In this document: positions 28,169 to 37,815 of the stretch, in pieces | How positions within the stretch are numbered: position 1 is the first letter of the stretch | Layout of the letters: every line of letters begins with the position of its first letter | Origin: Escherichia phage T4_ev151 | DNA length: 64,000 bases | Sequence record: LR597660 | Reading direction: 5' to 3' (one strand) | Notes under the pieces: model-generated | What the model saw: the letters and a program-made list of their open reading frames with translations, nothing else | Told to the model about the DNA's origin: nothing | Databases searched by the model: none | Program-made: the position numbers and the translations under genes

Positions 28169-28498
28169 TCAATTAGAAAATAAATTTATCCAAGATTGTT
28201 CTTTAATTAAAAATGGCTCAGAATCATATGCCATTAAACTTTGCGTAATTAATCCTTTAAAAGGTCCATCAATAAATTCCATGGTAAAATATGGAATTTT
28301 ATTCATTAGCCGTGCATTAGGAGCAGTGCACAAAACTCTGCATCCTTTGAATACACCTTTTTGTAATTTGTATTGCTTGGGATAAAATTCGCTTAAAATG
28401 TTGTTATTTGCCAAAATTTCAAAATGATTCACCAATTTATTTTTAATAGTTTTTGGCGAAAAATAAAGATATTCGAAAAGCTGAGTGTCTGTCATCAT
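28169..28498 (-). CDS. Hypothetical protein (vs.7 position); start uncertain
   Basis: ATG at 28498/28495 or 28549. Confidence 0.45.
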
Positions 28499-29031
28499 TG
28501 CATTCCGATTACGAAAAACTGTGGACGAGTAATACCACCAATACAACATTTAATATTACAGCAGTAGTGTACAGTGTCAATATGGACGCTATAAATCTTA
28601 TCCATATCAGGAGATTTGACAGGCTCATCAATTATATACAAAATTCGCGAAAGCGATAAACCTCTGAACTTGCTTCCTTTATTACCAATAAAACTGCGCA
28701 CAGAATCAGTAAATAAACGAAAACGTATATCATTAGAATAACGCGAAAATTCCTTTTTAATGTTATTTGCAGAAATTTTAGCGTAAGCTGAAGTATTAGA
28801 AAGAACAATAACTGTTCCGCCATCATACAACCAATTAGCGGCAAAATTAGTTACTGCGGTTGATTTACCGGATTGACGTCCACCATCTAGTCGAAGTGTG
28901 CAATACTGCTTAAGTAAGTCTTCAAATGGTGGGATATATTCGTTTTTACAAATTTCTTCTACTCTAGCATCAGAATGGTGTGTAAAAGCATTCATCAGGG
29001 ATAGATAAGGACCAGTTAAAAATGTTCTCAT
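28495..29031 (-). CDS. Small P-loop NTPase (vs.8 position)
   Basis: Walker A GGRQSGKST, Walker B ILYIIDEP; start ATG 29031 preferred (track 29079). Confidence 0.5.
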   Translation of the reverse strand: MRTFLTGPYLSLMNAFTHHSDARVEEICKNEYIPPFEDLLKQYCTLRLDGGRQSGKSTAVTNFAANWLYDGGTVIVLSNTSAYAKISANNIKKEFSRYSNDIRFRLFTDSVRSFIGNKGSKFRGLSLSRILYIIDEPVKSPDMDKIYSVHIDTVHYCCNIKCCIGGITRPQFFVIGMQ

Positions 29032-29184
29032 TTTATTCTCTCTAAATTTGGGCCATTCCATGGCGCATGAATTGTCCATTTCTGTATTTACCCATTACCG
29101 CACTTGGGCTCGACCTTATTACAGGTTGGCGGGAATCCCTCATAGAATCATGAGGTCCAGCTTGTTCCCATATTTCTTATTTGC

Positions 29185-29658
29185 TTATTTGAATGATTTG
29201 ACGTACTGAATAGAGCCTTTGCTATTCACAAAGGCAATTTTACCATTTTTATTATACATGGTAGCAGTACGCTGATAACCATAAGTTTGTTTACCAGATT
29301 GATAACCAACTAATGCAAAATTATCTTCGCCCATTTTATTCTGTTTAGCGCGGATGCGTTCATGGCCATGTGCCATAAGAACCTTAGCATCACCAGTTGC
29401 AATGGATCGACGAGTTTTTTCATCTTCAACTGTATTAACAAAGTCGTCAAATGAATCAAATTTAGCATGAGATTTATTATACAGTTTTCCATCTACTGCA
29501 TAATTATATCCCTGTACATCCATCTCAACTTCTGTACCATCATCCAATACAGCAGTGATTTTTTGACCTTTTTTAAATTTCAAAAGATCAGTAAAAGATT
29601 CAGCAATAATTTGAGAATTAATAGCTGCTTCAGTAATAAATTCTTGATATGTTTTCAT
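29185..29658 (-). CDS. Internal protein family member (capsid-targeting sequence MKTYQEFITE)
   Basis: 157 aa; N-terminus MKTYQEFITEAA with LxE gp21-protease site; AAAGGAAA SD. Confidence 0.65.
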   Translation of the reverse strand: MKTYQEFITEAAINSQIIAESFTDLLKFKKGQKITAVLDDGTEVEMDVQGYNYAVDGKLYNKSHAKFDSFDDFVNTVEDEKTRRSIATGDAKVLMAHGHERIRAKQNKMGEDNFALVGYQSGKQTYGYQRTATMYNKNGKIAFVNSKGSIQYVKSFK

Positions 29659-29667
29659 ATGTTTCCT

Positions 29668-30084
29668 TTAAATGTAAATATTTTTGCCGTAATACTTGTA
29701 CCAGTGTGGCTTCATTAAAATTTTTTCATCAAGTCGTTGTTGACTCAATTTAATAGCTGATTTGCATGGATTATAATCATTTTTCCATTCTGCTGGAATA
29801 TCGCTGATGTCAGGAACTTCAGTATCTTTTATACTGAACCCGCGTTTTAAGCATTCCGTTATAATGTCTGATTGACGCTTTCGCAAAAATTCTAACTTAT
29901 CGTAAAAGAAAGTAACATGACCAGAACCTAAAATAAACTCGGAAGATATTTTAAAATCTTTAACCCGCTTACCATTTGCAACATGTTTACGAACTATACC
30001 AAAAACACGCGGCAATTCACGGTATTCTGCGATTAAATGTTGATCAGCAAGTTCAGATACTAAAGTCAAATTAATACGAGTCAT
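29668..30084 (-). CDS. denV: Endonuclease V (pyrimidine dimer glycosylase)
   Basis: 138 aa, [17 protein letters not shown]...; diverged from recalled T4 DenV; GGAGGG SD. Confidence 0.9.
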
Positions 30085-30109
30085 TTTATCCCTCCAAGTA
30101 ACTGTGAAT

Positions 30110-30139
30110 ATACTATCACAATTCTAGGAGAAAGTAAAC
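30110..30139 (-). promoter_or_regulatory. T4-type early promoter upstream of denV
   Basis: Minus strand GTTTAC, 18 nt, TGTGATAGTATA. Confidence 0.5.
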
Positions 30140-30143
30140 AACT

Positions 30144-30674
<531 letters not shown>

Positions 30675-31115
30675 TTAAAAGAGGTTGTTCATTATTCGGT
30701 AAAGTGAAGGACCCATCACATATTGCCACTGAGTACGAGGAATAAGAGCAAAAGCATCCATCTCTGGAATCATAACGCCATCTTTATTTTCAAAATAAGA
30801 CTCACAATAGCAATTTCTGAACATCTCATGCTCTACTGGAATCGTATAATAAAATAACTGTAAGTCTTTATTACTAGAATATTTAAATACACCTAGGTCT
30901 TCTAGAAGGTCTGGATTATAATTGCTAAAACCAGTCTCTTCTAAGCATTCTCTTCGTGCTGCATCTAGTGCGCTTAAATCAGAATTTTCTACACGGCCCT
31001 TTGGAATATCCCAGCGATGTGCCATCATTCCAGGCTTACGAGAACCAGTAACACGACCCATAAATAAATCTTTATCTTCTGTCATAAAGATAATACCAGC
31101 TGATAGTGTTTTCAT
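30675..31115 (-). CDS. nudE: Nudix hydrolase NudE
   Basis: Nudix box GRVENSDLSALDAARRECLEETG; ATG 31115 with AGGAAA SD (track TTG 31130 gives 151 aa). Confidence 0.85.
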   Translation of the reverse strand: MKTLSAGIIFMTEDKDLFMGRVTGSRKPGMMAHRWDIPKGRVENSDLSALDAARRECLEETGFSNYNPDLLEDLGVFKYSSNKDLQLFYYTIPVEHEMFRNCYCESYFENKDGVMIPEMDAFALIPRTQWQYVMGPSLYRIMNNLF

Positions 31116-31474
31116 TTTAATTTCCTGCAATCACTCACAAACTCTTTCATTGACTCATTTTCAATATAAGACATGTAGCTATTATATTCCTTTAATTGTA
31201 TTTTGTAATCCTTTTTTCTTTGCCAATTTATTTTAAAATTATCATAATGAAAATATAAAATGATACCAAAGAATGAAAACAATGAAATAATTTTAGTATA
31301 ACAAAGCTCACTCCAAACTTCTGTTATATTTACTGTGCCGTCGATGTTTAAAATAAGACAGTCAATTAACAATCCAAAAAGACTACCCGCAAGAGCTGCA
31401 GCCAACGCCACAGCAAAAATTAAAAATGACTCAGGAAACGAATATTTGACTTTATTTAGTTTTGGCTTTTGCAT
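31112..31474 (-). CDS. Membrane protein
   Basis: 120 aa, two hydrophobic helices. Confidence 0.55.
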   Translation of the reverse strand: MQKPKLNKVKYSFPESFLIFAVALAAALAGSLFGLLIDCLILNIDGTVNITEVWSELCYTKIISLFSFFGIILYFHYDNFKINWQRKKDYKIQLKEYNSYMSYIENESMKEFVSDCRKLK

Positions 31475-32466: not shown

Positions 32467-33060
32467 TTATTTCAGAGAATTAATGTATTCCTGAACATCG
32501 GCAGAGGTAGTTTCAACCCCAGAAATATTACCGTTAAAGGTTTCAACTCGAGCAAGGGTATCTTCAATATCAACCTTAGTCAGTGCTGCAATTTCAACTA
32601 CATCATCGGCAGTACTAATTCCAAGGGCATTTGCTGCACGAGTTTCACGGATATATTCCAATTTAACCGCAAGTTCTTGACGAGCATCATCTAACTCAAC
32701 TACTTTCTTGGCGATTTCAATTCGCATTTCAGCATAACCGTCAGCCTTAGTAGTCAACTGCTCAGCTGTTCGACGATATAGTAAACCGAGTTTAGCATGC
32801 ATTGTTACATCTTGGCCTTCGGAAAGAAGTTTACGAATTTCACGCTCTTTTGATTCGGCCTGTCGATTCTTTTCGATAACAAGTTCACGAATACGTTTTT
32901 CTTCGTTAATAGATTTAACAGAAGCAGTTTTTAGATCTTTAATTTTATCAAGTAGTTTTGCTGCTGCAGCAGTATACTGTTCTTCGACAGATAGATTTTT
33001 AGCCATAGCAGAACCAAGTTTAGTGCGAATAAACTCAACAATTTTCTTCAGTGTGTTCAT
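32467..33060 (-). CDS. Hypothetical alpha-helical coiled-coil protein
   Basis: 197 aa, AAGGAAA SD, heptad-rich. Confidence 0.55.
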
Positions 33061-33161: not shown

Positions 33162-33425
33162 TTATTTCATATTATTGAAATATTCTTCTGCGATTTCGTC
33201 GTTATCATGGTAAACTTTAGAAGACAGTTTAACATAACCTTCTGCTGTGAACATATTAATCACAACTTTTACAGTATACCACTGACCGTCTTCATTACCC
33301 ATTACTGCGTAAGTTTCAAACATCGGATGATCAGGACCGATAACTTTAATATCATTCACTGTACGACCGAAATCTTCTGAAACGCATTTCATAAAGAAGT
33401 TGAACAGTTCGCCGTAATTATCCAT
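33162..33425 (-). CDS. Hypothetical protein
   Basis: ATG 33425 with GGAG SD; track extension translates promoter/leader. Confidence 0.5.
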   Translation of the reverse strand: MDNYGELFNFFMKCVSEDFGRTVNDIKVIGPDHPMFETYAVMGNEDGQWYTVKVVINMFTAEGYVKLSSKVYHDNDEIAEEYFNNMK

Positions 33426-33468
33426 TTCATTCTCCAAGTTGTTTTCTGTATCAGTAGTTGATAGTTGT

Positions 33469-33499
33469 ATAGTACCATGGAAGAACAGAGATGTAAACA
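33469..33499 (-). promoter_or_regulatory. T4-type early promoter with conserved leader
   Basis: Minus strand GTTTACA, 19 nt, TGGTACTAT plus ACAACTATCAACTACTGATACAG. Confidence 0.55.
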
Positions 33500-33621
33500 G
33501 TTTTGTGAAAAAATTTTTAGGGAATTCTAGGGCAGGGATGGGCAATTAAAGGATAGGATAATATATTATAAAGGGTATAAACTAAATGATGCCTAGAGAG
33601 GTCCAGAAAGGCCTAGATACC

Positions 33622-33654: not shown

Positions 33655-34218
33655 TTATTTACCTAGTTTAGTTATTATAGCTTCTGCAGCAGCTTTTAGC
33701 TTAGATGCAGTGTTAATACGATTTTTAATTTCAGTATACGCATCGCCAAGAACATCAAGGCTATCAGAATAAACACTTACACTATTGCGTTCGCTATTTG
33801 AAATAGAACCTTTAGTTTTACGATCAAAATCGGTGTACACGTCTTGAAGATCGCGGGCTGCCTTCTTTGCATCATCCAATGCATCAAGAGCTTTATTCAA
33901 AGCATTAACGTATTTTTTGGTGTCGAACATATTCTTAGAAATTTTAACAGGTGCACGTTCAGGAGTAGCTAATACAGATTTAGGAACCTGAGCGCCAGAT
34001 GCCAATTTCTTAGAAATTTTGAAAAATGCTTTATTGAATTTATTTTCTTGACTCATTGTAAAAGAACTATTATCGATGTTGTACATTTCAATAGCTTTAG
34101 CTTTCCACTTAAGAAAATCGCCGCGGTCTTTTGGGTCCAAGTGGAAGAATACTTTAGTAAGATCTGCTTCAGATGGTAATTTTGCTGCTTCGGTTAAAAA
34201 TTCTGCATAGGTTTTCAT
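33655..34218 (-). CDS. Internal protein family member (capsid-targeting sequence MKTYAEFLTE)
   Basis: 187 aa; N-terminus MKTYAEFLTEAA; AAGGA SD. Confidence 0.65.
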   Translation of the reverse strand: MKTYAEFLTEAAKLPSEADLTKVFFHLDPKDRGDFLKWKAKAIEMYNIDNSSFTMSQENKFNKAFFKISKKLASGAQVPKSVLATPERAPVKISKNMFDTKKYVNALNKALDALDDAKKAARDLQDVYTDFDRKTKGSISNSERNSVSVYSDSLDVLGDAYTEIKNRINTASKLKAAAEAIITKLGK

Positions 34219-34652: not shown

Positions 34653-34729
34653 TGGTCGAGGCAGAAGGATTCTAACCTTCAACCTACGGATTAGAAATCC
34701 GTTGCTCTATACAATTGAGCTATGCCCCG
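34653..34729 (-). tRNA. tRNA-Arg (anticodon TCT), CCA encoded
   Basis: Cloverleaf read by eye: acceptor cggggca/tgcctcg, anticodon loop tTCTaa. Confidence 0.8.
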
Positions 34730-34732
34730 TAA

Positions 34733-35398
34733 TTAAAATTTCATTTTTCGACCTTTAAACCATCCTTCTGGAATTGGGTCAGTTTTCTTAATACGTTTAG
34801 AAACTTTTTCATCTAATGAATGAATCCACATCATACCAAATTGGGAATTCTTTTCGCCCTGTTGATGTTTATTTCTGGCGTGAGATTCTTTCATTTTATT
34901 AATAGTTTCAGGAGTATGGGTCTTACCCAAGAAAGATTTAGTATTTAAAAATTTCTCTCTATACTTAGGATTATCCCAAAGCCGTTTAAACCTTTCTGAA
35001 CCCATTTTACGATATTTTTCTTTAAGGTCTGGGTCGTTCTCAAATCTGGTTTTAAAAGCGGCAGCTCCTTTTAAGGAAGCTTCTTTCTTTTTATCCAAAT
35101 ATTCTTTAGTGTTTAAATGGTCCCAACCACCTTCACCACCTAATTTCAAATTATAAACATCAGGGCGCTTTAAAAACTCTTCAGTCACAATATTCTTTTC
35201 TGACTCAAACATAGAGGTTTTATCGTCAAAGAACTCTAATATTTCTTTAGAAAAATTTTCTATACCATACTTATCTTGGGCTCTTTTTAATAATTTACCA
35301 GAACCCATATATCCATCATCTAAATTTTCGGTAGAATGAGCGCCTATATAGATTTTATTATTAATTTTATTTGTTATTTTATAAATGTAATGGAACAT
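34733..35398 (-). CDS. segB: GIY-YIG homing endonuclease SegB
   Basis: 221 aa; MFHYIYKITNKINNKIYIGAHS GIY-YIG core; sits inside the tRNA cluster as in T4. Confidence 0.85.
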   Translation of the reverse strand: MFHYIYKITNKINNKIYIGAHSTENLDDGYMGSGKLLKRAQDKYGIENFSKEILEFFDDKTSMFESEKNIVTEEFLKRPDVYNLKLGGEGGWDHLNTKEYLDKKKEASLKGAAAFKTRFENDPDLKEKYRKMGSERFKRLWDNPKYREKFLNTKSFLGKTHTPETINKMKESHARNKHQQGEKNSQFGMMWIHSLDEKVSKRIKKTDPIPEGWFKGRKMKF

Positions 35399-35439
35399 AA
35401 ATATCTCCTATTTCTAAGAGTATTTATGTTCTCAAAATA

Positions 35440-35511
35440 TGGCCCTGGGTGGAATTGAACCACCATCTGGCGATTATGAGTCGCTTGCTTGAACCTTCCA
35501 GCTACAGGGCC
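35440..35511 (-). tRNA. tRNA-Ile (anticodon CAT, lysidine-type)
   Basis: Acceptor ggccctg/cagggcc, T-loop ggttcaattcc, anticodon loop cTCATaa; assignment by T4 order. Confidence 0.7.
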
Positions 35512-35517
35512 TTGATA

Positions 35518-35590
35518 TGCTGATTGACGGAATCGAACCGCCGACATCCTCATTACAAGTGAGGTGCTCTACCTACTGAGCTAAATCAGC
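35518..35590 (-). tRNA. tRNA-Thr (anticodon TGT)
   Basis: Acceptor gctgatt/aatcagc, anticodon loop cTTGTaa, T-loop ggttcgattcc. Confidence 0.8.
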
Positions 35591-35597
35591 GAAATTA

Positions 35598-35684
35598 CGG
35601 AGGCGATAGGATTTGAACCTATGAGTCGCCGGAGCGACTGCCGGTTTTCAAGACCGGTGCATTAAACCACTCTGCCACGCCTCC
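35598..35684 (-). tRNA. tRNA-Ser (anticodon TGA), long variable arm
   Basis: 87 nt; acceptor ggaggcg/cgcctcc, anticodon loop cTTGAaa. Confidence 0.8.
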
Positions 35685-35686
35685 AG

Positions 35687-35760
35687 TCTCCGTGGCAGGA
35701 TTTGAACCTACGACATTCTGCTCCCAAAGCAGACGCTCTACCAAACTGAGCTACACGGAG
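35687..35760 (-). tRNA. tRNA-Pro (anticodon TGG)
   Basis: Acceptor ctccgtg/cacggag, anticodon loop cTTTGGGa, T-loop ttcaaat. Confidence 0.8.
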
Positions 35761-35772
35761 TAAATTAAATTT

Positions 35773-35844
<72 letters not shown>

Positions 35845-35850
35845 AAACTT

Positions 35851-35937
35851 TGGTACGAGAAGTGGGACTCGAACCCACAAGGAAATCATTCCGCAGCATT
35901 TTAAGTGCTGTGCCTTTACCAATTTGACCATTCTCGC
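35851..35937 (-). tRNA. tRNA-Leu (anticodon TAA), long variable arm, CCA encoded
   Basis: 87 nt; acceptor gcgagaa/ttctcgt, anticodon loop cTTAAaa. Confidence 0.8.
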
Positions 35938-35943
35938 GCTATA

Positions 35944-36552
35944 TTATTTATTACGTGAAAAAGACTGTTCTATCAATTCTGGACACTTTCGTTCTATCCA
36001 TTTTCTAGCTTTTTGTGGGCTTATACCTATTATTTTAGCAGCTTTACTAACCCATCCAAATTTAGAATAATCGATTTTAACTAATTCTTCGTAAATTTCA
36101 TCAGTTAAAATCTTTTCATTAATATTTACCAGTAAATGATATAATTTATTATCATTAGCAATTTTAATGAATCTTTTATAGTTTCCGCCTTTACTTAAAC
36201 CTAATGAAGTAATTGCAGATGATATAGTAGCCGAATTTAATAGTGCGTTTAAAATTTCTTCATCACTAACATTATAACGCTTTCTATTATTTTTAATATT
36301 TTTACCAGCAAAAGTATCAGTTTGCGAATGGCAATTTGGGCATAATAATCTTAAATTTGATTTAAGATGATTTTTGTTATTTCCATCAATATGGTCTAAT
36401 TGTAGAACAATATGCTTATTTTGCCATTTTGAAATTTTACAAATTGCACACTCATATGGAAAAATATTTTCTTTTATTATTTTGTCTTTCAGCTTTCCTG
36501 TACTAAAATTTGGATGTTTTCCTTCAAAAATTTCAGCTAATTTAGTATCCAT
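35944..36552 (-). CDS. HNH homing endonuclease
   Basis: HNH motif LQLDHIDGNNKNHLKSNLRLLCPNCHSQTD; ATG 36552 (track TTG 36576); stop 6 nt from tRNA-Leu 5' end. Confidence 0.75.
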   Translation of the reverse strand: MDTKLAEIFEGKHPNFSTGKLKDKIIKENIFPYECAICKISKWQNKHIVLQLDHIDGNNKNHLKSNLRLLCPNCHSQTDTFAGKNIKNNRKRYNVSDEEILNALLNSATISSAITSLGLSKGGNYKRFIKIANDNKLYHLLVNINEKILTDEIYEELVKIDYSKFGWVSKAAKIIGISPQKARKWIERKCPELIEQSFSRNK

Positions 36553-36634
36553 AATATGATTCCCAATTATTAACAAAGGCTCTCAAACAAGAACCCTTGA
36601 TGATAGAGGGTATTAATCAGTGCGGTATGAGTTA

Positions 36635-37581: not shown

Positions 37582-37815
37582 TTATTTTTTACGAAAAATT
37601 GATTTATATTTATCAGCCCATTTCTCGATGACTTTTTCTGGTCCATAGATAACAAAATAATCACCAAACTCTTCACCACCGAGCTGACCGAAATTATCTA
37701 ATGCATCACGAAGAACTCCATGAGGCATTTCGCCCATTTTATCTTTCTTACCAATGTAAATAAACTCAACTTTTACATCAGCAGCTTCAGCAATAAATTC
37801 TTGATACGTTTTCAT
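37582..37815 (-). CDS. Internal protein family member at the ipI locus (capsid-targeting sequence MKTYQEFIAE)
   Basis: 77 aa from ATG 37815 (GGAG SD); N-terminus MKTYQEFIAEAA; adjacent to 57B as T4 ipI. Confidence 0.65.
   Translation of the reverse strand: MKTYQEFIAEAADVKVEFIYIGKKDKMGEMPHGVLRDALDNFGQLGGEEFGDYFVIYGPEKVIEKWADKYKSIFRKK

Follow-up and report, generated by a model that had tools for sequence, protein, structure and literature searches.

The open reading frame between denV and vs.8 in Escherichia phage T4_ev151 is very likely the known internal head protein gene ip4

We found that the open reading frame (ORF) lying between denV and the vs.8-like P-loop gene of Escherichia phage T4_ev151 very likely encodes an internal head protein that has been named before, Ip4 (ipIV). 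It would thus be a nonessential internal-protein (ip) gene of the T-even phages, placed in the variable cassette site between e and vs.8 and acting by the mechanism that we propose below. An ORF of 157 amino acids starting MKTYQEFITEAA had been reported at this place from the letters of the window (the whole stretch of 64,000 nt that was analyzed), and it is indeed present. Its product matched the Pfam family DUF7412 (PF24183) at 5.7e-96 (319.4 bits; cut-off, 27), residues 1 to 157 corresponding to profile positions 1 to 158. It also matched PHROG 3155 (phrog_3155), an "internal virion protein" family, at 6e-102. The protein is 100% identical to T2 ipIV, RB32 Ip4, and ipIV of Yersinia phage PST, and RB51 Ip4 is 99.4% identical to it. 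In the structural search, Ip4 of phage K3 (UniProt Q38388; 99% identity, TM-score 0.94) was the sole significant match in BFVD, and no enzyme-like or inhibitor-like fold was recognized. The RB32 and RB51 records carry the annotation "similar to T2, RB70 Ip4." The gene, its name, and the gene order are already public, as Ip4 in RB32 and RB51, as ipIV in T2, GiZh, and PST, and as K3 Ip4 in UniProt. When compared with Ip4/ipIV of T2, K3, RB32, RB51, and RB70, the ORF is alike in protein, length, and capsid-targeting sequence (CTS), and nothing of substance differs.

A tblastn search matched the ORF in 470 of 50,697 phage records, 290 of them at an identity of at least 99%. In a collection of 5.8 billion proteins, the family formed 14 clusters, all at least 61% identical, and 12 of the 14 were 156 to 160 amino acids long. 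Judged by these sequences, the Ip4 family is small and compact.

Read along the minus strand, on which they are transcribed, the genes are ordered nudE, e, denV, ip4, and the vs.8-like ORF, each backed by Pfam or PHROG matches (Table 1), and only 9 nt separate the denV stop codon from the ATG of ip4. The corresponding order in T4 is e, ipIII, ipII, denV, vs.8. The sequence-only reading had described the T4 ipII/ipIII slot as empty, in agreement with the e–denV gap of only 59 nt. It had also placed the gene upstream of denV, which holds in plus-strand coordinates but not in transcription, where ip4 lies immediately downstream of denV. In the 105-nt spacer between ip4 and vs.8, we found no tRNA, Rfam gave only subthreshold eukaryotic snoRNA noise, and the folding z-score was 0.01. 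On these results, a hidden RNA or tRNA in the spacer was rejected.

Table 1. Coordinates of the features in and around the e–vs.8 interval of the window.
Feature	Position	Strand	Basis or remark
nudE	30675..31130	minus	Pfam/PHROG
Two tandem TATAAATA late-promoter motifs, upstream of e	30652..30672	minus	pattern search
e (T4 lysozyme)	30144..30638	minus	PF00959; 95% nt identity to T4 e
e–denV intergenic, 59 nt; T4 ipIII/ipII position, empty	30085..30143	minus	ORF coordinates, T4 map
denV (endonuclease V), divergent allele	29668..30084	minus	PF03013, phrog_1183
Conserved 59-nt ip leader	29627..29685	minus	27 nt upstream including AAAGGAAA Shine-Dalgarno, plus 32 nt of CTS coding sequence; overlaps last denV codons
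ip4 (ipIV) CDS	29185..29658	minus	ATG ORF, 157 aa, N terminus MKTYQEFITEAA; ORF list, Pfam, PHROG
CTS MKTYQEFITE, codons 1-10	29629..29658	minus	ends in gp21-type I-x-E cleavage motif
vs.8-like P-loop ORF, downstream of ip4	28495..29079	minus	phrog_1488

The order found in the window is exactly that annotated in RB51 (FJ839693), namely, e, denV, Ip4, and vs.8. When we searched with 721 nt that cover both junctions of denV, with ip4 and with e, one-piece matches at 96 to 99% identity were obtained in GiZh (annotated denV, ipIV), wV7, HY01, fPS-90, and others. The frequencies of the different arrangements are estimates extrapolated from rows sampled at even steps through 571 hits and not counts. 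On this basis, about 140 records have e–denV–ip4, about 125 have e–ip4 without denV, about 95 have e–denV without an ip gene, and the remainder are of the T4 type. T2 and RB32 belong to the e–ip4 group; in them, denV is missing and ip4 directly follows e, while the window represents the RB51-type variant with denV. The e–denV group is exemplified by Escherichia phage OMNI12, in which the order is e–denV–vs.8 with no ip gene between (locus L005, 2357..2978); its denV coding sequence is annotated at 300 nt only and may be truncated or frameshifted. In the Salmonella phage CGG4-1, a Gelderlandvirus, the order is lysozyme, a hypothetical ORF, endonuclease V, and an "Ip4 homolog." In three genera (Tequatrovirus, Gelderlandvirus, and Jiaodavirus), ip4 thus comes after e, whether denV is present or not. 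The impression of a relocation is an artifact of using T4 as the reference. Because the same order is annotated in RB51 and was seen in an estimated 140 or so other records, the arrangement in the window is, as far as the compared sequences go, ordinary and not a new rearrangement. The earlier claim that the internal-protein complement is rearranged relative to T4 is correct in that it differs from T4, but the difference is not unusual, given its annotation in RB51 and its presence in GiZh, wV7, and HY01.

The CTS sends internal proteins into the prohead core (PMC3012670; PMC12373910), a "proteolyzed mature form" is mentioned for IPI (PMC3012670), and the internal proteins are injected along with the DNA (PMC12373910). 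We defined the CTS class by the N-terminal motif MKT(Y/F)xEF(I/L)xE. Among the six-frame ORFs of the window, this pattern was found in exactly three (29185..29658, 33655..34218, and 37582..37815) and in none of 200 shuffles, which bears out the description of ip4 as a third internal-protein-like gene. M1, K2, F7, and E10 were invariant in 12 Ip4 homologs of 61 to 82% identity, whereas the residues after the CTS varied. During T4 head maturation, the gp21 prohead protease cuts off the CTS at (L/I)-x-E ahead of a small residue. Ip4 contains two candidate sites for this protease, I8-T9-E10/A11 and I18-A19-E20/S21; both E10 and E20 were invariant in the 12 homologs, and the position three before E20 was always I, L, or M. 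The predicted mature protein would have 137 to 147 amino acids, a mass of 15.5 to 16.5 kDa, and a pI of 9.1 to 9.3; Ip4 carries 22 K+R versus 18 D+E. Its position in the e–vs.8 ip hotspot, together with the conserved leader, is that of the T-even internal head proteins.

The flanks of the e–vs.8 interval are 95 to 96% identical to T4. On the side of e, homology to T4 stops 49 nt beyond the e stop codon, at window position 30095. It restarts 12 nt past the ip4 stop codon, at the base that corresponds to the one right after the T4 denV stop, and the vs.8 region that follows shows 96% nucleotide identity. The denV gene of the window is 77.9% identical to that of T4 over 294 nt, with 78% identity between the proteins, and Gelderlandvirus DenV is 75 to 76% identical to T4 DenV as well as to window DenV. 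The distance between window DenV and T4 DenV is thus similar to that of either allele from the Gelderlandvirus protein. The divergence of DenV (78% at the protein level) between flanking e and vs.8 DNA of 95 to 96% identity, together with its equal distance from Gelderlandvirus, suggests that the e–vs.8 interval exists as two old alternative haplotypes. The ip4 leader shares 96.6% identity with that of T4 ipII and 95.7% (47 nt) with that of T4 ipIII, while the remainder of the gene is unrelated. It is plausible that such conserved leaders act as recombination substrates for cassette exchange, which would be in line with the internal proteins being a diverse set that has the CTS alone in common (PMC3012670).

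A pattern search detected no exact TATAAATA between e and ip4. The gene thus lacks a perfect late promoter in this stretch, and a promoter belonging to ip4 itself was rejected as a candidate. Along the minus strand from e to ip4, the search revealed nothing resembling a terminator. Because two copies of TATAAATA lie upstream of e, with none between e and ip4 and no terminator on the way, late Ip4 is probably most simply explained by late read-through across e–denV–ip4. Between e and denV, GTTTAC and, after a spacer, TGATAGTAT form an arrangement that resembles an early promoter.

Taking these elements together, we propose that ip4 would be cotranscribed with e and denV, with a late start at the tandem TATAAATA upstream of e, and that an early-type promoter between e and denV may add to its transcription. 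The CTS MKTYQEFITE would target Ip4 into the prohead scaffolding core, and the gp21 protease would strip it at I-T-E10/A, with a possible further trim at I-A-E20/S. The mature basic protein would stay with the packaged DNA and be injected together with it. In the host cell, it would most likely neutralize a host defense, by analogy with T4 Ip1, Ip2, and Ip3. Packaging, cleavage, and injection of Ip4 are what we infer from knowledge of the family.

GmrSD type IV restriction enzymes are the targets of T4 Ip1, Ip2, and Ip3, each of which blocks a different one (PMC12373910). Because each of them acts on one specific GmrSD enzyme, an anti-defense role is the best guess for Ip4, and by this analogy we would give it roughly an even chance. 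Silas et al. challenged a panel of GmrSD variants with ip4-10 and obtained no reproducible inhibition (PMC12373910, main text and Supplementary Fig. 9), and thus an anti-restriction role is only putative for Ip4. The narrower possibility that Ip4 is an injected inhibitor of some defense outside the 15 GmrSD groups tested, possibly not type IV restriction, seems to us tentative, with a likelihood falling a little short of one-half. The functional paradigm of the class is T4 IPI*, a CTS-bearing, gp21-processed, and injected accessory protein that inhibits GmrSD of E. coli CT596. It differs from Ip4 in occupying another locus (57B–tRNA) and in lacking a sequence match; Ip4 gave no Pfam match to PF11634 (IPI*) and no structural match, and thus showed neither homology nor fold likeness to it. 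In the open-access literature, we found no paper on the function of Ip4 or on its virion detection or injection, and one match to "ipIV" concerns sequence repeats and has no bearing on function.

Under the reading that the window had initially received, a gene of the T4 IPII/IPIII type left its place between e and denV for one between denV and vs.8, in a novel rearrangement of the internal proteins. The empty e–denV slot is in keeping with such a move, and so are the CTS and the 59-nt leader, which are nearly identical to those of T4 ipII/ipIII. The similarity does not, however, reach into the rest of the protein. In BLASTP comparisons, only residues 1 to 13 aligned with T4 IPIII, the match to IPII (31% over 77 amino acids) was driven by the CTS, and that to IPI comprised the N terminus and a marginal stretch. 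The proteins also fall into separate families, Ip4 into PF24183/phrog_3155, IPIII into phrog_5341, IPII into phrog_7857, and IPI into PF11634/phrog_4363. Against DUF7412, T4 IPIII gave no match and IPII reached 15.3 bits versus the cut-off of 27, and the cross-matches of the internal proteins were N-terminal and far below threshold. The one further point for a move is a weak match of 59 columns and 64% probability obtained by hhalign between a 12-sequence Ip4 profile and T4 IPIII (locus L001, 5835..6416), which pairs Ip4 65-125 with IPIII 71-141 in the core of both proteins; it hints at a very distant common ancestry but is too weak to call. In the Jiaodavirus Klebsiella phage KP182, lysozyme, Ip4, and IPIII stand in a row (locus L007, 2006..3631), demonstrating that Ip4 and IPIII are distinct genes able to coexist. 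KP182 IPIII is 87% identical to T4 IPIII while KP182 Ip4 is about 69% identical to window Ip4, which indicates that the two ip cassettes evolve at different rates. Since BLASTP, Pfam, PHROG, and hhalign show the CTS alone to be shared, and since the order is annotated in RB51, is widespread, and recurs as denV–Ip4 in another genus, we rejected the relocated IPII/IPIII ortholog and consider it extremely improbable. By sequence comparison, ip4 is not an IPII/IPIII homolog that moved, and the term "relocated" does not apply to it. The sequence-only reading had named as its own refutation an ordinary IPII/IPIII ortholog in a previously described arrangement; the described arrangement, the decisive half, is that of RB51, while the gene is Ip4 and not IPII/IPIII. 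What T4 IPII and IPIII do share with Ip4 is the CTS, the near-identical leader of 47 to 59 nt, the e–vs.8 hotspot, and presumably the route of packaging, cleavage, and injection. In contrast, their mature sequences are unrelated to Ip4, they lie at another position relative to denV, and they have known GmrSD targets, whereas Ip4 is not known to have any.

The protein might also serve in another way than by countering a defense. Classically, IPII and IPIII were assumed to help pack the condensed DNA or to act as basic counter-ions to it. Ip4 packaged and injected in this capacity, with no specific host target, would fit the basic pI of its mature form, the lack of a recognizable enzyme-like or inhibitor-like fold, and the absence of an inhibitory interaction between ip4-10 and the GmrSD variants tested (PMC12373910). 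The net charge, however, is modest at 22 K+R versus 18 D+E, and the presence of ip4 varies among very close relatives (absent from T4 and OMNI12-type phages, present in T2 and RB51), as is typical of accessory counter-defense genes. Moreover, all three T4 internal proteins were once held to be structural and now have specific targets (PMC12373910). We thus regard a pure packing role as unlikely, though less so than the remaining alternative, in which the CTS-like N terminus is a relic and Ip4 stays unencapsidated in the cytoplasm of the infected cell, coexpressed with denV. The short 9-nt spacer, which brings ip4 translationally close to denV, and the lack of a perfect late promoter of its own would suit a cytoplasmic protein. 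A relic is nevertheless hard to reconcile with the invariance of M1, K2, F7, and E10 at 61 to 82% identity while the next residues vary, or with a DNA leader kept at 96% relative to T4 ipII, and late transcripts can come from the late promoters that precede e. Accordingly, we judge it very improbable, and an encapsidated Ip4 remains the reading that we prefer.

The two other CTS-bearing ORFs of the window are both on the minus strand. The one at 33655..34218 encodes 187 amino acids starting MKTYAEFLTEAAKLP, with a CTS-like N terminus, an L-T-E/A site, and a pI of 9.4. Its position, past the e.6-like gene (32467..33060) and an ORF at 33162..33545 and before the tRNA cluster, is roughly that of T4 e.7/e.8. 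It belongs to phrog_2280 ("unknown function"); 164 phage records match, and all 30 of the 30 sampled have it as "hypothetical protein" or unannotated. Past the CTS, no similarity to T4 IPII or IPIII was found. This ORF is a candidate for an internal protein that has no name yet and is encoded away from the two classical ip loci, and it is the most interesting by-product of the ip4 analysis. The second ORF, at 37582..37815, lies in the ipI locus downstream of 57B, where it replaces IPI. It encodes a CTS-bearing protein of 77 amino acids (MKTYQEFIAEAA; pI 5.8) that belongs to phrog_8111 ("internal virion protein") and to no Pfam family, and its upstream leader resembles the T4 ipI leader.

Between these loci, ARAGORN identified a minus-strand cluster of seven tRNA genes at 34653..36576 (Arg, Met-type CAU, Thr, Ser, Pro, Gly, and Leu) and no tRNA-Gln. 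An HNH endonuclease ORF (35944..36576; phrog_14736) is found directly upstream of tRNA-Leu, at the place of tRNA-Gln in T4, and a segB-like GIY-YIG ORF (34733..35398) is located inside the cluster. The 24 kb of the window from 20000 to 44000 had no one-piece match among deposited phages. The best records covered 92 to 94% of it in 7 to 11 pieces at about 96 to 97% identity, and thus the phage is a mosaic Tequatrovirus identical to no record in the collection.

The stretch from e to vs.8 is a known hotspot of cassettes, of which T4 carries only one variant. Across three genera of the Tevenvirinae, ip4, ipII, ipIII, and denV are combined there in at least five ways, and this makes T4 a poor reference for what is normal at this place. 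The value of the present gene as a discovery is small; however, Ip4 is a reasonable candidate for anti-defense screens. If it does target a defense other than the GmrSD groups tested, selection by that defense would be the reason why ip4 occurs so patchily among near-identical genomes of Tequatrovirus.
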